Part shown: in pieces, positions 1 through 10,288 of the stretch | Layout of the letters: each line of letters starts with the position of its first letter | Position numbering within the stretch: the stretch's first letter is position 1 | Assembly: GCA_043803945.1 (NCBI GenBank) | Contig: JAZDJN010000001.1 | Location: forward strand, 1-10,288 | Length of the DNA: 10,288 nt | Reading direction: 5' to 3' | Source: a bacterium | GTDB lineage: Bacteria > Bacteroidota > Ignavibacteria > UBA10030 | Translations under genes and position numbers: made by a program | Notes under the pieces: generated by a model | Told to the model about the DNA's origin: nothing | Databases searched by the model: none | The model's input: the letters and a program-made list of their open reading frames with translations, nothing else

Positions 1-120
<120 letters not shown>

Positions 121-143
121 TGGTTGGACTTTTCGTCCAAGCT
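121..143 (-). repeat. 23-nt hairpin repeat, copy 1 (AGCTTGGACGAAAAGTCCAACCA on the - strand); forms the intron's 3' exon
   Basis: Its reverse complement matches 3365-3387 and 10119-10141 at 22/23 nt each. Internal palindrome TTGGAC-N5-GTCCAA. Confidence 0.9.
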
Positions 144-203
144 TCCAGCGAATTGTAATCACCAGATTCGTGAATGTCAAGTGCCACTCTTGCGAAATTG
201 ATA

Positions 204-232
204 TTGCTCACAAACCTATTTTTTTCTATATT
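204..232 (+). promoter_or_regulatory. Candidate sigma70-type promoter upstream of the tRNA locus
   Basis: TTGCTC (204-209), 17-nt spacer, TATATT (227-232). The same -10 sequence occurs in the alr promoter candidate. Confidence 0.45.
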
Positions 233-293
233 ATAACTGATTCACTCACGTTACGCAAAAACACAAAATAAGACTCTTTGAAAGAAAATCTGG

Positions 294-331
294 CCGCCAA
301 GTGCGCCCCAGACCGCCATGCGGTCTGGCGG
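294..331. repeat. GC-rich palindrome (REP-like) in the tRNA leader
   Basis: Perfect 9-bp stem CCAGACCGC (308-316) / GCGGTCTGG (320-328). Alternative outer pairing CCGCCA (294-299) / TGGCGG (326-331). Confidence 0.55.
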
Positions 332-500
332 GAAGAATTTTATTATTTGATTGTTTTCATAAGAATCTGAACATCTATCACATTTAAATCTTGGTGTTTT
401 GGCGTTCTTGGCTGCAAATCTTTCTCTTTTTCTGATCTTACTCAGTTCCATGCGTAACATAACTAATTCACAGTGCTGAAGTAGCTCAGTGGTAGAGCAG

Positions 501-614
501 TCCCGCAAGCCTGATGCTGCGGTAGCTCAATGGTTGAGCAGTGGTTTCGTAAACCACAGGTTGCCGGTTCAAGTCCGGCCCGCAGCTCAAATAAATCAGA
601 ATCGGCTGGCGGGA
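501..614. mobile_element. 114-nt insert bounded by imperfect inverted repeats and carrying tRNA-Thr(CGT)
   Basis: Left end TCCCGCAAGCCTGAT (501-515) versus the reverse complement of the right end (601-614), TCCCGCCAGCCGAT: one mismatch and one indel. The boundaries coincide with the breaks in the outer tRNA. Mobility is inferred. Confidence 0.55.
516..587 (+). tRNA. tRNA-Thr(CGT), CCA not encoded
   Basis: Complete cloverleaf: acceptor GCTGCGG/CCGCAGC; D-arm GCTC-AATGGTT-GAGC; anticodon stem GTGGT/ACCAC with loop TTCGTAA (CGT at 548-550); T-arm GCCGG-TTCAAGT-CCGGC; discriminator T587. Confidence 0.93.
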
Positions 615-635
615 TAAACCGCCGGTCCTGGGTTC

Positions 636-689
636 TGAGCCAACCTGTCCGCCATGTTTTTGGCGGAAGGCTCATCCACCTCTGGTGGA
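636..689 (+). repeat. 30-nt double-hairpin module with a nested 24-nt hairpin module, inserted in the T-loop of the outer tRNA
   Basis: TGAGCCAA|AGGCTCA-TCCACCTCTGGTGGA, interrupted by CCTGTCCGCCATGTTTTTGGCGGA (644-667). Related copies at 3389-3466 and 10238-10267. Confidence 0.8.
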
Positions 690-837
690 AACTCCCACCT
701 TCGGCTCTATCTTTTACTATTTCATTGATATCCAGGGAATACTCATTATTGTAATATTCGCATGAGTGTTCAAGTAGATGTGAAAGCTATTTTTTCCCTC
801 CCCAGTTTCCCAGAGAAATATCAGTGGTAAGTCATTT

Positions 838-3363
838 ATGAAACTCAACTTTCAATCCCTTCTTCTGATTGCGTACCTTACTTTTGGAACACTTATCGCT
901 CAGGATCGCAAAGGCCAGATCACCGGCCAGGTCATCGATGCGCGGACACAGGAGCCTCTGCCCGGCGTCAATGTTGTCCTGGTCGAAAAAACCAGGATTG
1001 GTGCTGTCACTGATATTCAGGGGAATTTCTCGCTGAAAGAAATTGAAGTGGGGGAATATGCCCTTCGTTTTTCTATCATCGGATATGAATCTGTCATCGT
1101 GACCAACGTTGTAGTCTCTACAGGGCGCAGTGCAAAGGTCAGTATAAAAATGCAAGAGACCACACTCCAGATGGAGGGACAGGAAGTCCGGGCAGATTAT
1201 TTTCAGCGTGCCGGTTCCATGAGCCCGATCAGCACAACCGGACTGGATGCAGCCGAAATACGCCGCTCACCAGGTTCTGTCCAGGATATTCAGCGGATCG
1301 TTCAGAATCTTCCTGGTGTCGGCAACTCAACGGATCAGACAAATGAACTTATCGTCCGCGGCGGTGCACCAAACGAAAACCTGACCGTAATGGACTATCT
1401 CGAAATCCCCTCCACCAACCATTATCCGAATCAATTCAACTCCGGCGGACCGATTAACATGATTAATGCAGATCTCATTCAGGATATTCAGTTTTCAACT
1501 GGTGGGTACCCAGCGAACTATGGAGATAAACTCTCTTCCGTTATGAATGTTGCAGTTCGGGAAGGCGATCGCGATCGACGGATAGCCTCGAACACCAGCA
1601 TGCACTTTGCTGGTGTTGGTGCAGTGCTCGAAGGTGGCATCGCATCAGGCCGAGGTTCATGGATCATTTCAGCGCGACAGAGTTTTCTTGAGGTGTTGGA
1701 TAAACTCGTCGGAGTCAGTTCTCTTGGACTGACCGCAGTCCCCAAGTATTGGGATGCACAGTGGAAGGTGGTCTACGATCTTTCGCCTCAGCATAAATTG
1801 TTGTTCAACGGGCTTCTTGGTGATGACCGGATCCTCATGGTTGGATCTGAGAAAGAACATAATGCAGCAAAGGCCGGCGTACGAGATTCGGTCAATGTGA
1901 ACGATATTGATTTTCACAGCTCACAATACGCTGTTGGAATAACACTGAAAAGCATTCTCGGAACCGTCGGCTATTCCGCTCTCACTCTCTATAGCTGGGG
2001 AAATTTCTGGGATATGGGGATGCGATCTAAATTCTCCTCGCGATCATATGATGCTGAGGGAAACCTTGGATCTGTTCAAACAATTTCAGACCGGACCAGT
2101 TTCTACGAGTATTCCCAGGAACGCTATCTCGGATTGAAATATGAAGCGGTCTATGGAATCACGAAAGCACATAATCTTGCCTTCGGAGCCCAATATCAGA
2201 CTGTGGCTCTGTTTAAAAATGATGTTAAGATCGATCGTGATACTGTTCGTTACAATCTCGATGGGCTCCCGGGATTTGAAATCCCAATGGTCGTGGTGCC
2301 TCCCTGGAATCTTTCCAAATCCATTAGCTTTGCGCGTGACTATAAGCTTGATGCTTATGTAAGCAATACCTGGCAAGTCAGTCCAGTAGTTATAGTCACT
2401 GGAGGGCTTCGCTATGATTATTTCAGTTACTCACGGTGTGCGACATTGAGTCCGCGCTTGAATTGTTCTTATCATCTTTACCCGCCGACCACAAAGTTAA
2501 CAGCCGCTTACGGAGAGTATTATCAAATTCAATCGTTTCCTACATACGGAGATCCACAGGATCTCGAATTTAATCGCTACCTGAAAAACAGTCATGCCCG
2601 GCACCTGGTCTTCGGGATCGAACATATTCTTGCCGAAGGGTTGAAGTTGAGTTTGGAAGGATACCAAAAATCCTACTCCGATCTTCCTGTGCGGCAGGCC
2701 TATATCTATTCCGCGGATCGAACTTTTCGCTCCGATACTGTCCTGAATCTTGGTATTCGTTCGGCGTATGGGATTGAATTCTTCATGCAGCAAAAACAAG
2801 TCACAAACACATACTTTACGCTCAGTTACTCCTGGTCTAAAACTCGGGATAAGGATCCACGAACACCGAAACTTGTTGAGGAGTACCCCTCGGCCTATGA
2901 CTATCCGCACATCTTTACCTTTGTCATCGGTCATCGGGTGAAAGATTTCCGAACCACACTGAACAATCTGCCATTCTACATTAAATATCCATCGTCTATC
3001 CTCCCATTTTCGGATGATATGGAAATCAGTTTGCGCTTCCGATTCCAAAGCGGAAATGTCTATACCCCAAGGGTCTATGTGACTGACGAACAGCACCGCG
3101 TCGGTGGGCGAGCCTGGACTCCGGGATGGTGGAAAGATGGAGTTGCGACAAATTCTGCACGCTACCCCGACTATCACCGGCTCGATATTCAGTGGATAAG
3201 CCGGTACCATCTGGCAGCGTATAATATTGAGGTTGTCTTTGCCATTCAAAACGTTTACAATCGGGCGAATATTTCCATGATGAATTATCGGAGTGATGGA
3301 ACCATTGAGAACGTTTATCAGTTTTCATTTTTCCCGGTGGCTGGTCTCAATGTTGAATTTTAA
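838..3363 (+). CDS. TonB-dependent outer-membrane receptor with N-terminal carboxypeptidase-regulatory-like domain
   Basis: 841-aa ORF with a signal peptide. GQITGQVIDARTQEPLPGVNV is typical of the CarboxypepD_reg-like domain. Plug motifs DIQRIVQNLPGV, LIVRGGAPNEN and GGYPANYGDKLSSV; barrel motifs GLRYDYF and LSPRL; C-terminal Phe (GLNVEF). Substrate unknown. Confidence 0.93.
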   Translation: MKLNFQSLLLIAYLTFGTLIAQDRKGQITGQVIDARTQEPLPGVNVVLVEKTRIGAVTDIQGNFSLKEIEVGEYALRFSIIGYESVIVTNVVVSTGRSAKVSIKMQETTLQMEGQEVRADYFQRAGSMSPISTTGLDAAEIRRSPGSVQDIQRIVQNLPGVGNSTDQTNELIVRGGAPNENLTVMDYLEIPSTNHYPNQFNSGGPINMINADLIQDIQFSTGGYPANYGDKLSSVMNVAVREGDRDRRIASNTSMHFAGVGAVLEGGIASGRGSWIISARQSFLEVLDKLVGVSSLGLTAVPKYWDAQWKVVYDLSPQHKLLFNGLLGDDRILMVGSEKEHNAAKAGVRDSVNVNDIDFHSSQYAVGITLKSILGTVGYSALTLYSWGNFWDMGMRSKFSSRSYDAEGNLGSVQTISDRTSFYEYSQERYLGLKYEAVYGITKAHNLAFGAQYQTVALFKNDVKIDRDTVRYNLDGLPGFEIPMVVVPPWNLSKSISFARDYKLDAYVSNTWQVSPVVIVTGGLRYDYFSYSRCATLSPRLNCSYHLYPPTTKLTAAYGEYYQIQSFPTYGDPQDLEFNRYLKNSHARHLVFGIEHILAEGLKLSLEGYQKSYSDLPVRQAYIYSADRTFRSDTVLNLGIRSAYGIEFFMQQKQVTNTYFTLSYSWSKTRDKDPRTPKLVEEYPSAYDYPHIFTFVIGHRVKDFRTTLNNLPFYIKYPSSILPFSDDMEISLRFRFQSGNVYTPRVYVTDEQHRVGGRAWTPGWWKDGVATNSARYPDYHRLDIQWISRYHLAAYNIEVVFAIQNVYNRANISMMNYRSDGTIENVYQFSFFPVAGLNVEF

Positions 3364-3364
3364 G

Positions 3365-3550
3365 AGCTTGGATGAAAAGTCCAACCACTGCGCCAGCGCG
3401 CACCTGTCCGCCGTCTTTCGTGCATTTTGCGTCCACCATCTTTTTGTCGGATCAGCCTCTGGCTGAGAAGGACACAAAGTATAAAATGAAATTCAATTGA
3501 TTTGAAATTTTATCATTTTTACAGTTCTTCCTTCGTATCCTTTAGTGGTG
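3365..3550 (+). repeat. Composite palindromic element, copy A: 23-nt hairpin, then an inverted-repeat body around an AT-rich spacer, with nested modules in the left arm
   Basis: Hairpin at 3365-3387. Left arm AACCAC|GAAGGACACAAAG is interrupted by 3389-3466. Right arm CTTCGTATCCTTTAGTGG (3531-3548). Homologous to 10119-10273. Confidence 0.8.
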
Positions 3551-3581
3551 AAATTATTTCCTGTACTTTTCAATCGGGTCA

Positions 3582-3687
3582 CTAGCCCGAAGGCGTCCCC
3601 GCCTGCTCTAAAGAATTCATAATGGTGGGCAGGTCGCCGAGGGAAATAACGAAAATATTGTGCTCGGCGGGGACGCCTTCGCACTAG
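3582..3687. repeat. REP/REPIN-like long inverted repeat with an internal hairpin insert
   Basis: Perfect 16-bp inverted repeat CGAAGGCGTCCCCGCC (3588-3603) / GGCGGGGACGCCTTCG (3666-3681), flanked by CTAG at 3582 and 3684. Internal CCTGC...GCAGG hairpin at 3602-3633. Confidence 0.75.
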
Positions 3688-3785
3688 AAAATATTTATTG
3701 GACAACAATGAAGGGGGATTTGTCGATAGAGTGTCAAATTTCAGATTAATTCGTGACTTAGTAGCTGAGAATAAACGGAAGAGTA

Positions 3786-4311
3786 ATGCAACCATCCCTT
3801 TTTGATCTTATCATTGTCGGAGCGGGCCCCTCAGGCCTCGCTTGCGCTATTGAAGCTAAAAAAGCAGGCCTTTCCTGTCTGGTGCTCGATCAGGGTTCCG
3901 TGGTCGACGCAATCCGTAGATTCCCTTTCAATATGACGTTCTTTTCTACCGCTGGGCAACTAGAGGTTGGCAATATTCCTTTCCTCTGTAAAAGAAATCC
4001 ACCCGCACTCAATTATTATCGAGGGCGTGGAAGAGCGTGAATTGTTGAACGATGCCCTCTTCCCAATGATCGGCTACCAGCCGGATCATTCATTATTGGC
4101 AGGTCTCCATGTAGAGATCGACCCCGAGACGTTGATACCAGCTCACGACTCAAAGACAATGGAGACGAATGTGCCAGGATGTTTTCTTGCAGGTTCTATT
4201 GCGGCTGGCAAGTTTAACAATAAAATATTTATTGAGAACGGCAGGCTTCATGAAAAAGAGATCGTGAACCGAATACGTTCTCGATCGCAATCTCCCTCGT
4301 CATTGCATTGA
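3786..4311 (+). pseudogene. ypdA: YpdA-family (putative bacillithiol disulfide reductase, thioredoxin-reductase-like flavoprotein) pseudogene with internal deletion and frameshift
   Basis: First frame: FAD-binding DLIIVGAGPSGLACAIEAKKAG and FPFNMTFFST...LEVGNIPF. Second frame: IGYQPD, TMETNVPGCFLAG and FIENGRLH, the YpdA C-terminus. The two parts total only about 175 codons, and no central NADPH-binding domain is visible. Confidence 0.85.
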
Positions 4312-4336
4312 TTTTAGGGGAGGTTTTTGCTATTTT
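4308..4336 (+). promoter_or_regulatory. Candidate promoter for atpD-atpC
   Basis: TTGATT (4308-4313), 17-nt spacer, TATTTT (4331-4336), with an extended -10 TG at 4328-4329. Confidence 0.4.
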
Positions 4337-4475
4337 TTGCAAGCACAATAACTGATATTACGCATTACAAATTACATTAGCGTCCTTGACGAACTTGGCG
4401 GTTCAGGTTTTCAATCAAGGCTTTCAATCTTTACTCTGCGTAATGTGAATGTGATAAGACATGTAATATTTTTGA

Positions 4476-5900
<1,425 letters not shown>

Positions 5901-5903
5901 GTG

Positions 5904-6320
5904 ATGGCAGACAAAGAGTTTATGATAGAGATCGTCACGCCGAAAAAAATTGTTTTCAGCGGATCGGTTCAGAGTTTCTCCGCTCCGGGGATTATGGGTG
6001 GATTCCAGGTGTTGAAGAGTCATGCACCGTTGCTCTCATCCATCGGCATAGGCGAAGTGAAACTGATAGACGCGGTTGGAAAAGAAATTCACTATGCCAC
6101 GAGCGGCGGTTTTGTGGAAGTGCACGATAATAAAGTGGTTCTTATTGCCGAAACTGCAGAACGATCCGAAGAGATCGATGTAAGCCGGGCACAAGCCGCA
6201 CAACAACGGGCTCAACAACGTCTGAGTATAAAACGTGTCGAAACTGATATCGATCGGGCCCGCATTGCTTTGCACCGGGCACTGAACCGATTAAAAATTG
6301 CCGGTGCTCAGCAGAGTTAA
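5904..6320 (+). CDS. atpC: F0F1 ATP synthase subunit epsilon
   Basis: EIVTP, G.FQVL.SHAPLLS, SGGFVEV and AERSEEIDVSRA motifs; directly follows atpD. Start is ATG 5904 or GTG 5901. Confidence 0.97.
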   Translation: MADKEFMIEIVTPKKIVFSGSVQSFSAPGIMGGFQVLKSHAPLLSSIGIGEVKLIDAVGKEIHYATSGGFVEVHDNKVVLIAETAERSEEIDVSRAQAAQQRAQQRLSIKRVETDIDRARIALHRALNRLKIAGAQQS

Positions 6321-6343
6321 TCCATGGCCCCAAGTTCCATTCC

Positions 6344-6384
6344 GACAAGCTCATTCACCCGATGTGAATGAGCTTGTCTGTTTT
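6344..6384 (+). terminator. Rho-independent terminator of atpD-atpC
   Basis: Perfect 15-bp stem GACAAGCTCATTCAC / GTGAATGAGCTTGTC with a 5-nt loop, followed by TGTTTT. Confidence 0.85.
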
Positions 6385-6425
6385 AGAGGAGAGAGGTGAA
6401 GAATCGATGAGTCGATGCACGATGA

Positions 6426-6454
6426 TTGACATTCAATACCCTAAGCGGTATATT
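6426..6454 (+). promoter_or_regulatory. sigma70-type promoter of the alr operon
   Basis: TTGACA (6426-6431), 17-nt spacer, TATATT (6449-6454), just upstream of alr. Confidence 0.75.
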
Positions 6455-6476
6455 CAAACCGATTTTGAGAACCTAA

Positions 6477-7628
6477 TTGCCACCAACAAGGAGCAGCTCC
6501 GCTTTGCCTAAGATCACGCGTCCGGCTGTAGCGGAAATAGATCTCCGACTCATCGCCGCCAACCTCAAAGCGATTAAGCGTAAGGTTGGCCCTTCCGTTA
6601 AAATTCTCGGTGTGGTAAAAGCAAATGCCTATGGCCATGGTATGGTTGAGGTTTCACGCTTTATCTCGAATGGACTGGTAGACTCACTCGGTGTTGCGAC
6701 GGCCGAAGAGGGAGTGATACTCCGGAATACCGGGCTGCGCAAACCGATCCTTGTCTTTACACTTCCATCGGAGCCGCAGGTCAAAGCAATCGTTCAGCAT
6801 GGACTCGAAGCGACGGTCTGTTCGCCGGTTGAGGCACGTACGCTTCAGCAGGAAGCAGAACGGCGCAGACGGAAGGTGGCTGTGCATCTGAAGATCGAAA
6901 CGGGAATGAACCGGATTGGTATTACGCCATCAGGATTGCCGGTACTGCTGAAATCACTCTCCCATATGAAACGGCTTGAGATTGTGGGTGTTTATACGCA
7001 CTTTGCCCAGGCGGACATCGCAGATAAATCTTATACGCACGAACAACTCTCGCGATTCACAAATGCTCTGGATATTCTCAAGACCCATGGCATTGAACCG
7101 GAGGTTATTCATACAGCAAATAGTGCCGGTATCCTCGACCTCCCTGAATCGCATTTCACGATGGTGCGGCCGGGTATCATGATGTATGGTTACTATCCCT
7201 CGGAGCATGTCTCCCGAAGTGTTCGCGTAAAACCGGCACTTACCCTGAGCTGCAAGGTATCATTTGTGAAAAGAATCGAAGCGGGTGAGACCGTCAGTTA
7301 CGGCCGACTCTTCAAAGCGACAGCGCCAGCATGGATCGCGACACTTCCCATCGGATACGCGGATGGCTACTTCAGGCTCCTCACCGGAAAATCGGCAGTA
7401 CTCATCAAGGGAAAGAAACATCCGGTGGCTGGAAGAATCTGTATGGATCAAATAATGGTTGATTTGGGTGACGTAAAAATCGCTGTGGGGGAAAAGGCAA
7501 TTCTCATTGGCAGCCAGGGAGCGTGCAGGATCGATGCTTCCGATCTTTCTTCCCTGATCGGTACAATTCCTTATGAAATTCTAACCAACATCTCATCACG
7601 TGTTCCACGGACCTATCTACCATCATGA
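6477..7628 (+). CDS. alr: Alanine racemase
   Basis: PLP-lysine motif VVKANAYGHG, plus HLKIETGMNRIG, HTANSAG, VRPGI, VSYG, IGYADG, GRICMDQ and GTIPYEI. The TTG start is uncertain. Confidence 0.98.
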   Translation: MPPTRSSSALPKITRPAVAEIDLRLIAANLKAIKRKVGPSVKILGVVKANAYGHGMVEVSRFISNGLVDSLGVATAEEGVILRNTGLRKPILVFTLPSEPQVKAIVQHGLEATVCSPVEARTLQQEAERRRRKVAVHLKIETGMNRIGITPSGLPVLLKSLSHMKRLEIVGVYTHFAQADIADKSYTHEQLSRFTNALDILKTHGIEPEVIHTANSAGILDLPESHFTMVRPGIMMYGYYPSEHVSRSVRVKPALTLSCKVSFVKRIEAGETVSYGRLFKATAPAWIATLPIGYADGYFRLLTGKSAVLIKGKKHPVAGRICMDQIMVDLGDVKIAVGEKAILIGSQGACRIDASDLSSLIGTIPYEILTNISSRVPRTYLPS

Positions 7629-8500
7629 ACGCACCTCAACAACAAATAGACGAGTTTCTTGGAATGCTCCCTGTTTATGAACTCTCCTCAGGGCAGCATC
7701 GCTCAACATTTGAGCAGATCCGGAATCGATTAAGTTCCACATCGGATTTTGATGAGGAGTTAAAAACACTTTTCAAGGTCGAGGGATTCTCAGATTTTGC
7801 GCTTGGACTGATGTTCCTTGCTGATAAATTAGCGAAGAATCCGCTGGCCATGGCCTCTGCTGATGATGAGGAGAGGATATTCTACAGTTTTAGATCTGCC
7901 GTTGGCGAAGATCCGGGTGTGGGTACTCCAGTGGAAGAGCCATCAATCCAGGAAGAGCCCACATTTGCTGCCCTGCAACCCGAAGAACCTGCAGCGGAAT
8001 ATACTGCCGAGGAGCCTGGCTCAACCTTCCCGATGGTTGAAGAAGAATCGCCAACGCCGGTGATGGAGCAGCCGATAAGCGAATCGGAACCATCCTATGA
8101 ACTGCCTTCTCTTGAAGAATCGCCTGCTGAATCCTTTAATGAGGGTTCCGCTGGCCTGTTTGATGAAATGGGATTCTCTGTACTCCTCGATCAATTTGTC
8201 GAAGCAATGCAGGGTGGCGATGAGAATCGGGAGACACTGATGAACGAGGTGATGATGCAATGCAATATGGCATTGTCAGGAGAAGAGCCGGAAGATTTTA
8301 AGGAATTCTGCCAGCGACTTTCTGAGTTTCTCATGTACATATCGGTGAACCAGTATCTCGATGATGTGCGGGTGATGAACATCCTCGCCAATATCTCAAG
8401 TCCGGTACAGCTATGGACCACAACCGCCCCTGATGCGCGGGCCGGTTTGCTCGAGGATGCCACAGGACCCTTGAGAGAATTCAAATCGATGTTTGAATAG
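7625..8500 (+). CDS. Hypothetical acidic protein: two helical-looking regions joined by a Glu/Pro-rich linker
   Basis: 291-aa ORF with an ATGA overlap with the alr stop and an 11-nt gap to manC. No family recognised. Confidence 0.85.
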   Translation: MNAPQQQIDEFLGMLPVYELSSGQHRSTFEQIRNRLSSTSDFDEELKTLFKVEGFSDFALGLMFLADKLAKNPLAMASADDEERIFYSFRSAVGEDPGVGTPVEEPSIQEEPTFAALQPEEPAAEYTAEEPGSTFPMVEEESPTPVMEQPISESEPSYELPSLEESPAESFNEGSAGLFDEMGFSVLLDQFVEAMQGGDENRETLMNEVMMQCNMALSGEEPEDFKEFCQRLSEFLMYISVNQYLDDVRVMNILANISSPVQLWTTTAPDARAGLLEDATGPLREFKSMFE

Positions 8501-8511
8501 CGGAAAACACA

Positions 8512-9600
8512 ATGGCCCAGACATTCGCAGTGATTATGGCAGGAGGTATTGGTTCTCGTTTTTGGCCGAGGAGCCGCGAGAAAACACCAAAGCAGCTTCT
8601 GGAAATTATCGGTGAAGGAACGATGATCGAGAATTCGCTCGCGCGCATCGAGCCGCTCGCCGAACGAATGAACACGTTCATCGTTACAAACAAGGCACAG
8701 TATGAAAATCTTCTGAAGCAGGTTCCTTTTCTGCCCAAGGAGAATATTCTGATCGAACCGATTGGACGAAATACAGCTCCCTGTATCGGCCTTGCAGCAT
8801 TATGGATTCAGCACATCGACCCGAACGCCTTAATGCTGGTCTTGCCGGCCGATCATCTGGTCCGGGATACCGACGAGTTCGTCCGCATCCTCTATCTTGC
8901 CCTGAAAGTTGCCGAGGAACAGGATGCCCTGGTCACCATCGGTATCAAACCAACGCGCCCGGAAACCGGCTACGGCTATATTCAGATCGAAGAAGAAGAG
9001 CATGACCGGAATCAATACCGGTCGGATGGCGTGTACCGCGTCAAAACTTTTGCAGAGAAACCAAACCTGGAAACGGCGCAGCAGTTCCTCGATAGTGGTG
9101 ACTTCCTCTGGAACAGCGGTATGTTTATGTGGAAAGCTGATGTGATCCTGCGTCAGATTGAACAACATCTCCCCGAAATGTACGAGATACTTTCCTCTTT
9201 GAAAAAGCATTTTGGTCTGCCGACTTATAAAAGCGCATTGCAGGAGGTTTATAGTCTCATCCGGGGAATTTCGATTGACTACGGTGTCATGGAGAAGGCA
9301 AACAATGTCTATGTCGTCAAAGGGGATTTTGGCTGGAGCGATATCGGATCGTGGGATGAAGTGGTCAGGTTGACACCGAAGGATGATAACTCCAATTCCT
9401 TCAGGGGTAAAGTTATTCCAATCGACTCGAAAAATAACTATATCGATGCCGGCTCAAAACTGGTGGCAACGGTCGGCGTGGAAGACCTCATCATCATTAA
9501 CACCGATGATGCCATTCTGGTCTGCCGTAAAGGGCAATCTCAGGATGTCAAAGAAATTATCGATTACATGCGGCGTAAGCAGATGAATGAATACTTCTAG
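8512..9600 (+). CDS. manC: Mannose-1-phosphate guanylyltransferase (monofunctional length)
   Basis: VIMAGGIGSRFWPRSR..PKQ, EPIGRNTAPCI, LPADH, PETGYGYI, FAEKP, WNSGMF, SIDYGVMEKA and WSDIGSW motifs; 362 aa with no C-terminal cupin PMI domain. Confidence 0.96.
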   Translation: MAQTFAVIMAGGIGSRFWPRSREKTPKQLLEIIGEGTMIENSLARIEPLAERMNTFIVTNKAQYENLLKQVPFLPKENILIEPIGRNTAPCIGLAALWIQHIDPNALMLVLPADHLVRDTDEFVRILYLALKVAEEQDALVTIGIKPTRPETGYGYIQIEEEEHDRNQYRSDGVYRVKTFAEKPNLETAQQFLDSGDFLWNSGMFMWKADVILRQIEQHLPEMYEILSSLKKHFGLPTYKSALQEVYSLIRGISIDYGVMEKANNVYVVKGDFGWSDIGSWDEVVRLTPKDDNSNSFRGKVIPIDSKNNYIDAGSKLVATVGVEDLIIINTDDAILVCRKGQSQDVKEIIDYMRRKQMNEYF

Positions 9601-9610
9601 ACCATATCCT

Positions 9611-10084
9611 ATGCCTCTTCTCATTTCTCTCCTTCTTTGCGTGACACTCACAGGGTGCTCAGTCGCTCCCCGCTTTGCGACACAAGGAAGGTCTGGGAGT
9701 GCTCCCTCTGCTCCTCCTCCACAGGAGAACAAGGAAGAGGTGAGTGCGCCGGTTGTGAAGAATCCCGGCAAGGTACTCCTCACACTCGAAGGGATTGCCT
9801 CCTACTACGCCGATGAGTTCCATGGCCGTCAGACCTCGAATGGTGAGGTCTATGATAAGAATGCCTTGACGGCTGCACATCGAACATTTCCGTTCGGGAC
9901 ACTGGTTCGGGTTACCAATCTGGAACAGAACCTCAGCACTATCGTGAGGGTGAACGATCGCGGCCCATTCAAGGAAGGCCGTCTCATCGATCTCTCCGAG
10001 GGTGCAGCAAAAGAACTTGGCATGATCCAGAAGGGGACCGCCAGGGTGAAACTTGAAGTTTTAGAATGGGGGAGAGGACAGTAG
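9611..10084 (+). CDS. rlpA: RlpA-family (septal ring lytic transglycosylase) lipoprotein, DPBB domain only
   Basis: Lipobox LTGC; GIASYY, TSNGEVYD, LTAAHRTFPFGT, VRVNDRGPF and IDLSEGAA motifs. Start is ATG 9611 or 9587. Confidence 0.93.
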   Translation: MPLLISLLLCVTLTGCSVAPRFATQGRSGSAPSAPPPQENKEEVSAPVVKNPGKVLLTLEGIASYYADEFHGRQTSNGEVYDKNALTAAHRTFPFGTLVRVTNLEQNLSTIVRVNDRGPFKEGRLIDLSEGAAKELGMIQKGTARVKLEVLEWGRGQ

Positions 10085-10118
10085 TCCCTTCCAATATGTT
10101 CTCCCTCCTTCCTCTAGA

Positions 10119-10273
10119 AACTTGGACGAAAAGTCCAACCACAAAGGACACTAAGGATGCGAAGAATAAAAAGAAAAAGGAGTAATGGAAATTTAAATTA
10201 ATTCAACAGTTTTTCCTTTGTGTCCTTGGTGAACTTTTCAGCCAGAGGCTGATGCGCCTTTGGTGCAGTGGTT
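10119..10273 (+). repeat. Composite palindromic element, copy B
   Basis: Hairpin at 10119-10141. Left arm AACCACAAAGGACACTAAGGATGCGAAG (10137-10164). Right arm CTTTGTGTCCTTGGTGAACTTT|GTGGTT is interrupted by a 30-nt double hairpin (10238-10267). Confidence 0.85.
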
Positions 10274-10288
10274 TGATTATGTTCTTAA

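Follow-up and report, generated by a model that had tools for sequence, protein, structure and literature searches.

What are the three small hairpin sequences that recur in 10,288 nucleotides of a genome of the Ignavibacteria lineage UBA10030 (contig JAZDJN010000001.1 of assembly GCA_043803945.1, positions 1 to 10,288, a stretch that we call the window at its full length), and how did they get there? A first-pass annotation had described them as copies of a very small mobile unit with covarying stems, inserted without target duplication into structured sequence, possibly by HUH/Y1 chemistry supplied in trans. Our results indicate that this 30-nt double hairpin, hereafter DH, very probably moves, or moved until recently, as a unit. 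The explanation that best accounts for the whole, and in which our confidence and our doubt are about equal, is that DH is a non-autonomous 30-nt mobile element of tRNA cassettes that bear a nuclease gene. All three copies exist at their originally assigned positions:

636-689, + strand: DH copy A; a 24-nt hairpin element nested at 644-667 divides hairpin 1 into 636-643 and 668-674
675-689, + strand: hairpin 2 of DH copy A, a TCCACC/GGTGGA variant also present in L042 (L-numbers designate loci from the genome scan described below)
3389-3466, + strand: DH copy B, made of a degenerate 14-mer hairpin 1 (3389-3402), a 49-nt insert (3403-3451) and a perfect hairpin 2 (3452-3466)
10238-10267, - strand: DH copy C, a canonical contiguous 30-mer that fits the scan pattern

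To place these copies in a family, we scanned 185,579 species-representative genomes with one degenerate 20-base pattern covering the last five bases of hairpin 1 and the whole of hairpin 2. The family counts given below are among the matches listed, which comprise at least 118 loci and at least 124 pattern matches; flanks of 0.3-2 kb were available per copy, with 2-kb flanks for 80 loci. The pattern fixed the loop of hairpin 2 and therefore biases what is seen of hairpin 2 and of the end of hairpin 1, while the ten upstream bases of hairpin 1 were unconstrained. A complete complementary hairpin 1 was nevertheless found in 85 of the 124 matches listed, and all 85 are exactly 30 nt long. The 39 incomplete matches, some of them GC-rich coding matches from actinomycetes and the like, are close in number to the chance expectation for the pattern, about 35 in 596 Gb by our own arithmetic; roughly a dozen of the 39 are DH variants whose hairpin 1 has a mismatch or a nested insert. 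Carriers are metagenome-assembled genomes (MAGs) labelled Ignavibacteria/Ignavibacteriota, Bacteroidota, Chlorobiaceae, many Patescibacteria lineages, Chloroflexota/Dehalococcoidia, Stahlbacteria and 'Gammaproteobacteria', together with one MAG assigned to the cultured species Melioribacter roseus (L084). The DH sequence is nearly identical across phyla. Its density is modest, since over some 300 kb of flanking sequence the covariance model described below turned up few additional copies. Two DH subtypes had no blastn match in plasmid and phage collections, with the low-complexity filter on.

DH consists of two adjacent 6-bp hairpins with 3-nt loops, and its consensus reads T-G-[C/A]-G-C-C NNA G-G-C-[G/T]-C-A, then T-C-[C/A]-G-C-C TNT G-G-C-[G/T]-G-A, the first bases of the hairpin-1 loop being free. 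We built a covariance model from 42 distinct copies, among which pair 3:13 is C-G in 22 and A-U in 17, and pair 18:28 is C-G in 24 and A-U in 16. Stem cells are paired in 97.4% of cases, and the covariation score was reached in 0/500 shuffles, so that the compensatory switches first noticed between the window's stems are confirmed on this larger set. The TCT loop said to be kept is indeed present in the three window copies, but four full copies elsewhere that were not constrained at this loop read TTT, TGT, TCT and TCA. All four combinations of hairpin types occur, in 39, 20, 13 and 9 of 86 copies. A single long hairpin was also considered as the conserved structure and rejected: it is the predicted minimum for one copy, yet the pairing pattern favours two hairpins, with the covarying positions paired by the two-hairpin fold in 84/86 copies and by the single long hairpin in 61-63/86.

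Within the window, the hairpin-2 motif was observed three times against 0.27 expected, a count reached in 0/200 shuffles. Copy A was matched by the model at 648-689 (29.9 bits, E 2.3e-07), and its DNA is predicted to fold into nested hairpins at -15.6 kcal/mol (z -5.25). Copy B is the weakest of the three, the model aligning its hairpin 2 only (23.5 bits). Copy C scored 50.7 bits (E 4.5e-13), a value that is not independent, as this copy is among the model's own 42 building sequences. Rfam returned no match at the DH copies at E values up to 1. The insert nested in copy A (644-667) represents a second small hairpin element of 24 nt, composed of CCTG, a 7-bp stem TCCGCCA/TGGCGGA and a 6-nt loop. 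The 49-nt insert of copy B (3403-3451) is a longer relative with a similar start, and a third copy adjoins a DH in an unrelated MAG (L001, 2041-2065, - strand). Further nested inserts were seen in the hairpin-1 loops of L019, L063, L072, L087 and L101.

Copies B and C of the window share flanks: both occupy the same position (AACCAC|RAAG, the bar marking the insertion point) of a local hairpin repeat, R. The window contains four R copies, two of them filled by DH, one empty and one cut by an intron 1 base from the DH site:

10114-10157, + strand: empty R copy, with hairpin TTGGAC-GAAAA-GTCCAA followed by CCAC and a vacant DH site at 10142|10143; identified from repeat D10, inverted repeats I2 and I17, and alignment with the filled copies
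3365-3388, + strand: R copy with DH copy B at its 3' edge
121-143, - strand: R copy truncated by the 3' end of a group II intron; identified from inverted repeats I2 and I3 and from alignment
10268-10288, - strand: R copy

Compared with the empty R copy, copy C is a 30-nt insertion and copy B a clean 78-nt insertion. Because both occupy the same R position, copies B and C may descend from a single insertion; the context of copy A is quite unlike theirs. Excision had been said to restore a perfect 10-bp inverted repeat at copy B. This inverted repeat is restored (AACCACAAAG, 10137-10146, with CTTT|GTGGTT), but by excision of copy C and not of copy B. The R consensus consists of the hairpin TTGGAY-GAAAA-GTCCAA, CCAC, then RAAGGACAC, and the copies are positioned downstream of genes. 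Two motif searches across the at least 118 fetched loci did not find R in other genomes, and R is on this basis lineage-specific.

Filled and empty versions of a site also lie side by side in L016, L041, L065, L082 and L110, and in three of these (L065, L082, L110) an intact and a DH-bearing T-arm of the same sequence are a few tens of bases apart. Alignment of 83 different sites pointed to T(-3) T(-2) Y(-1) | G(+1) A(+2) W(+3) T(+4) as the target: 61 sites have T at -2, 74 a pyrimidine at -1, 52 G at +1, 57 A at +2 and 49 T at +4. DH enters such sites between the pyrimidine and a purine, often within a hairpin loop. The exact word TTY|GAWT is found at 16/83 sites, against a background of 0.45 per kb in the same DNA. 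No repeated flanking bases were observed in these 83 different flanks, which upholds the view that DH inserts with sharp ends and without target duplication, and the fixed length of 30 nt in varied flanks bears out the description of a very small dispersed unit. The proposed preference for structured targets was also recovered as an excess of flank stems over re-paired flanks: stems of at least 5 bp surround 31/83 sites, against 17.4 +/- 3.3 after re-pairing, and 31 was reached in 0/300 re-pairings. Three loci (L001, L021, L039) hold a DH in the loop of another hairpin of the same kind.

This target consensus is the sequence of the tRNA T-loop, and the favourite site is the TTC|GAAT of T-arms. 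T-arm-like hosts (GGTTC|GAATCC) carry DH in tRNA sense in 19 cases and in antisense in 0; one further DH lies in a D-loop (L103), and most solo sites (64/83) have no tRNA-like sequence. The first-pass annotation had placed the insertion within a tRNA T-loop. The sequence is indeed that of a T-loop, but the hosts are displaced or broken tRNA copies adjoining an intact gene for the same tRNA, not working tRNAs. We also considered a working tRNA with an insert, or a tRNA intron, and rejected both, as ARAGORN called a tRNA after excision in 1/86 copies (L044); that copy carries further inserts and an intact tRNA-Gln gene lies nearby. In T-arms, DH survives only in non-functional tRNA copies. An intact tRNA gene is present within 300 nt in 20/78 DH loci versus 4/40 non-DH loci (Fisher p 0.055), and the difference within 100 nt of the match is not significant (p 0.17).

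Copies are also found inside protein genes. Nine of 85 lie in frames that are open for at least 80 codons on both sides, 6 in sense and 3 in antisense. The 30 nt amount to 10 codons, and by our own reading of the sequence the C-G/C-G form is free of stops in every frame. In L024, a closed 3.15-Mb MAG chromosome, DH (1991-2020) reads PPEADEPVV in the leucyl-tRNA synthetase (LeuRS) gene and corresponds to an insert of exactly 10 residues between the catalytic and editing domains, as aligned with the Thermus enzyme (2v0c). In L012 (2001-2030), it reads SAKGASASGG in a gapped, variable stretch of xanthine dehydrogenase. In four other loci (L017, L074, L084, L092), Pfam domains extend across the site or lie on both sides of it; the host genes in these loci encode a glycosyltransferase, an extracytoplasmic function (ECF) sigma factor, a PFL-like enzyme and an AIR-synthase-related protein. 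That copies sit inside LeuRS and other genes shows that the 30-nt unit can arrive alone.

Could DH instead be a motif that benefits its host (a binding site, terminator, RNA stability element or tRNA intron), selected and spread by duplication? The near-identity of DH across phyla is compatible with selection, and so is the pair of orthologous copies in two Ignavibacteriaceae species (region 1881-2150, - strand, of L006 and L015), which are 30/30 identical although the upstream spacer has diverged. Such a role is hard to reconcile with the unrelated contexts of the copies, which are intergenic, coding in both orientations, in dead tRNAs or nested in DH itself. There is no T run after DH, so it is not terminator-like, and a tRNA intron is unlikely given that the single tRNA call obtained on excision is itself broken. 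We regard host benefit as highly improbable. The DH of L006 and L015 lies just upstream of a conserved structured metH leader that ends in a hairpin-2-like stem and that, in our reading, resembles a cobalamin riboswitch.

A mobile unit requires a mobilizing activity, and the one initially favoured was a single-strand transposase of the HUH/Y1 type (TnpA or RAYT) that would act in trans, reading the hairpins and inserting DH 3' of a short word. Insertion without target duplication, a conserved 5' word with T at -2 and a pyrimidine at -1, and conserved hairpins all agree with this proposal. DH is also nearly its own reverse complement, with opposite-strand matches of 17-34 bits, like a spacerless inverted doublet of repetitive extragenic palindromic (REP) sequences, and one DH copy folds as a single long hairpin. 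According to the accessible text of PMC3116915, REP doublets forming hairpins (REPINs) have 'hairpin' and 'clover' folds as well and adjoin RAYT genes. REPs cluster beside their RAYT, whereas none of 233 open reading frames (ORFs) of at least 90 codons from 78 DH loci matched a Y1 transposase family in Pfam, and the only integrase-like neighbour among them was one weak N-terminal match in L024. Moreover, 22/86 copies mix hairpin types, which breaks a REPIN-like long hairpin, and DH occurs inside genes, unlike the extragenic REPs. Miniature elements derived from IS200/IS605 would insert without duplication 3' of a fixed word of 4-5 nt and have a hairpin at each end; DH shows no duplication and has a hairpin at each end, its left word is only T-T-Y, and its right flank (G, A, W, T) is conserved too. 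IS200/IS605 targets need no conserved right flank, and these elements carry guide bases next to their hairpins, for which DH leaves no room. The HUH/Y1 proposal was thus not sustained by the gene neighbourhoods, and we consider it unlikely.

The orientation of DH in tRNA-like hosts raises another alternative, in which a transcribed hairpin pair would enter exposed RNA loops and be copied back to DNA, the nuclease cassettes described below being bystanders. All 19 T-arm-like hosts are in tRNA sense, D-loops (L103) and T-loops are exposed loops of the folded tRNA, and the window itself contains a group II intron, an element with a reverse-transcriptase lifestyle. Missing flanking duplications prompted the proposal of an RNA intermediate for elements of Allomyces (accessible text of PMC2800124). 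The sense bias could also arise from a DNA target that is itself asymmetric (G at -5 and -4, T at +4), and copies in coding frames are found in both orientations. No reverse transcriptase was found among the 233 neighbouring ORFs, and a 30-nt element has no known means of inserting itself into RNA. Spread through RNA was reportedly also proposed for small dispersed repeats of cyanobacteria; for DH, we find it improbable.

The only recurrent mobile-type gene near DH encodes a GIY-YIG protein. It is an 81-residue stand-alone ORF (PF01541, E 7.8e-16), and its sole matches in the PDB are 1ywl (4e-06) and 1zg2 (5.4e-06), both UPF0213. Proteins of this type are listed as bacterial representatives of the Slx1 family in its minimal stand-alone form in the part of PMC1564403 available to us. 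From these closest relatives, the DH-linked protein appears by sequence to be a bare catalytic domain of the UPF0213/Slx1-like branch. A hidden Markov model (HMM) built from the first ORF hits was run over DH and non-DH loci, and it detected 12 GIY-YIG ORFs in 11/78 DH loci versus 0/40 non-DH loci (Fisher p 0.015, in a rough test). In 8 of the 11 loci, the nuclease gene is at most 42 nt from the nearest DH. Homologues with 60-80% identity were found in Patescibacteria and Margulisbacteria, mostly on contigs of 0.5-3 kb, as would be the case for repeated cassettes that interrupt assembly; phage and plasmid collections gave no tblastn match to the nuclease at E 1e-8, again with the low-complexity filter on.

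The gene and DH are organized together around split tRNAs. In L016 (Patescibacteria), the split falls at T-loop position 56|57 of a tRNA-Asn, and the order is the 5' part of the tRNA, DH, a short spacer, an intact tRNA-Asn, the 81-codon ORF, an identical DH and the original 3' end. The stop codon of the ORF lies within a T-stem mimic (TAGGTTC), and at both junctions two T-arms are joined into exact hybrids (CCTGG..CCTA and TAGG..CCAGG) that each hold the identical DH. We distinguished three architectures. In the first, an intact tRNA is followed by the nuclease gene, a T-stem mimic, TTC|DH|GAATCC and the old 3' end (L027, L091 and L094, with L048 as a variant); in the second, the old 5' part is followed by TTC|DH|GAATCC, the nuclease gene and an intact tRNA (L041, L044); the third combines both (L016, L026). 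The tRNAs involved are Asn (L016, L026), Gln (L041, L044), Ser (L094, L048) and Gly (L027), and DH is always at the junction that does not rebuild the tRNA. Both DH of one cassette have the same hairpin types and the same variable hairpin-1 loop, most clearly in L016, which argues for one event and not two independent insertions. The second DH of L026 is itself interrupted. In L027 and L094 the whole unit is duplicated in tandem, L094 having three units of which two keep only the 3' end of the nuclease gene, and L065, L076, L082, L089, L110 and L113 look like mini-cassettes that lack this gene. A graded series runs from cassettes that have the nuclease gene through mini-cassettes lacking it to solo DH. 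In L048 and L007, DH lies beside the nuclease gene outside a T-arm, which indicates that the link involves more than a shared preference for T-arms. A related design was seen at L026 (1945-1960) and in both dead tRNA-Gly copies of L027, in which the anticodon arm is replaced, not interrupted, by a 15-nt hairpin of the form T-N5-N3-N5-A, as in DH.

Copy A of the window has a comparable setting:

608-706, + strand: host of DH copy A, the displaced 3' part of a broken tRNA
476-506, + strand: 5' fragment of the same broken tRNA, with acceptor strand and D arm; identified from direct repeat D3 and from sequence
516-588, + strand: intact tRNA-Thr(CGT) between both pieces of the broken tRNA; called by ARAGORN and by Rfam (tRNA, 70.6 bits)

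The 3' part comprises a GC hairpin (608-623) at the place of the anticodon arm, GGTC, the T-stem strand CTGGG (628-632), TTC (633-635), DH, then AACT (690-693), CCCAC (694-698) and the acceptor strand CTTCGGC (699-705). The latter pairs with GCTGAAG (476-482), including one G-U pair, and it is on this pairing that we assign 476-506 and 608-706 to the 5' and 3' pieces of one tRNA flanking the intact tRNA-Thr. The 5' fragment matches the 5' part of the intact tRNA-Thr with 86% identity over 28 nt. As had been proposed, excision of copy A restores a T-loop (TTCAACT), but one that belongs to a broken tRNA fragment: ARAGORN reported no tRNA in this host at the default threshold and none with introns allowed, and after excision of copy A returned a weak pseudo-tRNA solely at the 80% threshold. 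We infer that copy A marks a decayed cassette of the L016/L027 architecture from which the nuclease gene has been lost.

The same cassettes could be read the other way round, with DH as an immobile crossover or landing site of circular tRNA-targeting cassettes that carry a T-arm mimic, and solo DH as what is left after a cassette exits. The junctions of L016, exact T-arm hybrids each holding an identical DH, are what such a crossover would produce, and the tandem arrays of L027 and L094, some with the nuclease gene deleted, also fit. The solo DH in the essential LeuRS gene and in other genes is difficult to accommodate, as it cannot be the scar of a cassette that splits genes; the 64/83 sites without tRNA-like sequence pose a further difficulty, and the arrival of the first DH at any site is left unexplained. 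We judge an immobile DH rather improbable.

Returning to DH as a mobile element of nuclease-bearing cassettes, we consider the GIY-YIG protein a serious candidate for the mobilizing enzyme, with about an even chance of being the right one. The nuclease would act in trans and would cut either at the ends of DH or at its TTY|GAWT target. When DH lies in a hairpin loop, the host stem and the two hairpins of the element could form a three-way junction without unpaired bases, the helix ends of which would coincide with the ends of the element. Slx1-type nucleases cut branched DNA near junctions (accessible text of PMC1564403), and the predicted three-way junction is a branched substrate of this type, which gives the GIY-YIG protein a candidate role. 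As cutting would be hydrolytic, joining would fall to host ligation or repair synthesis. Copies B and C of the window would then be solo DH in a local repeat. In a more far-reaching version, which we find conceivable but doubtful, DH would be the minimal substrate of an unrecognised mobility system in which a Slx1-like nuclease moves the 30-nt unit or DH-bounded cassettes, targets tRNA T-loops and other TTY|GAWT loops, and has spread horizontally over at least five phyla, including small-genome Patescibacteria.

Several observations weigh against this scenario. The nuclease gene is absent from 67/78 DH loci, 39 of which have at least 1 kb on both sides, and no gene or remnant was found in the window (0 HMM matches in ORFs of at least 40 codons). 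The Fisher comparison is rough in that most non-DH controls belong to other phyla and roughly a dozen turn out to be DH variants. Next to nuclease genes, functional tRNA genes whose T-loop has the same sequence are left untouched, so the nuclease cannot cut every TTCGAAT. The flank-stem signal appears at 5-6 bp only, the excess being modest and many targets not obvious hairpins; at 4 bp it is not significant (44/83 versus 37.6, reached by 21/300 re-pairings). GIY-YIG enzymes are to our knowledge hydrolytic, with no known strand transfer, and insertion needs other factors. Finally, the nuclease link could be indirect: cassettes create dead T-arms, and these may be the sole T-arms in which DH survives.

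The genes and gene parts of the window occur in the following order: the 3' end of the group II intron, tRNA-Thr(CGT), a TonB-dependent receptor gene, a decayed oxidoreductase gene, atpD, atpC, and genes for alanine racemase, a protein of unknown function, mannose-1-phosphate guanylyltransferase and an RlpA-like protein. Two features adjoin DH or R copies:

41-120: last 80 nt of the group II intron (Rfam RF00029, 54.2 bits)
838-3363: TonB-dependent receptor gene

The nearest homologue of the receptor is just 63% identical. The intron ends at 120, where it abuts an R repeat 1 base from the DH position of the other R copies, and the R site looks like a hot spot that two unrelated mobile elements, the group II intron and DH, have in common. 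Three small ORFs near copies A and B matched no Pfam family. Upstream of the decayed oxidoreductase gene, 3582-3687 forms an inverted repeat with 22-nt arms (91% complementary) around a second stem, with an RNA fold of -56.2 kcal/mol (z -5.6) and no Rfam match. The oxidoreductase itself (Pyr_redox_3, 3786-4311) is divided over two overlapping ORFs covering profile positions 1-73 and 230-305 of 305, and is probably a pseudogene because the middle of the profile is missing. A perfect 15-bp inverted repeat with a 5-nt loop directly after atpC (6344-6378) is probably an ordinary terminator.

We found no description of DH or of its sequence in the literature searched, literal motifs included, a body of text with few subscription journals and no supplements. 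A close bacterial parallel is the small dispersed repeats (SDRs) of cyanobacteria. Elhai and colleagues are said to have described these in Nostoc and other cyanobacteria in 2008 (Genome Res 18:1484) as single hairpins of 21-27 nt confined to a cyanobacterial subgroup, and SDRs reportedly show compensatory changes and self-nesting and were proposed as the smallest mobile elements, with no enzyme known. DH resembles them in being tens of nucleotides long and hairpin-forming, in its compensatory changes and in its nesting (L001, L021, L039), and differs as a 30-nt double hairpin found in several phyla, with a T-loop-like target and a linked nuclease gene. The double-hairpin elements of Allomyces mitochondrial DNA reportedly lie next to an endonuclease ORF. 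As far as the accessible text of PMC2800124 goes, these elements (Paquin, Laforest and Lang 2000) consist of two GC-rich hairpins without flanking duplication, lie in intergenic regions and in genes, are retained in transcripts and were deduced to be mobile from presence or absence between relatives. They are organellar, of another sequence and of variable length, whereas DH is bacterial, fixed in length, shared across phyla and aimed at TTY|GAWT.

REPs and REPINs are likewise short, palindromic, non-autonomous repeats with two alternative folds and a candidate enzyme gene flanked by repeats. REPINs are described in the available part of PMC3116915 as extragenic pairs of REPs in inverted orientation, separated by a spacer and linked to a Y1/HUH gene present in single copy. 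DH has no Y1 gene as a neighbour (0/233), keeps the two-hairpin fold, is linked to GIY-YIG and occurs in genes, with at least two copies (LeuRS and xanthine dehydrogenase) inside conserved genes by alignment, unlike the extragenic REPINs. The palindromic elements of Rickettsia are about 150 bp long, restricted to Rickettsia, and inserted in frame in unrelated genes and translated, according to the accessible text of PMC10969869; DH is similar in its insertion into genes but measures 30 nt (10 codons) and spans several phyla. The cassettes also share a feature with those of homing endonucleases, a nuclease gene located at a split tRNA target with a replacement copy that keeps the gene whole. 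Homing enzymes of the SegB type carry DNA-binding domains. Phage T4 SegB is, in the consulted portion of PMC2330249, a free-standing GIY-YIG homing endonuclease encoded among tRNA genes that spreads with neighbouring tRNA sequence; it belongs to phage genes, while the DH-linked protein is a bare 81-residue domain accompanied by a 30-nt hairpin module.

For annotation, DH matters because it splits or mimics parts of tRNAs, lengthens LeuRS and other conserved proteins by 10 residues, and probably breaks assemblies. It also provides a testable system, with a sharply defined 30-mer, a T-loop target and a candidate enzyme gene within a few bases in several lineages. We know of no enzyme tied so far to the footprint-free small hairpin repeats of cyanobacteria and mitochondria. 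If the nuclease link is causal, there is a real chance that DH will prove to be a new kind of element, and a role would emerge for stand-alone Slx1-like GIY-YIG proteins and for the large UPF0213 family, whose function is unknown. DH would then rank with the smallest mobile DNA units for which an enzyme has been identified, and a new kind of mobile element would be added to those already described.

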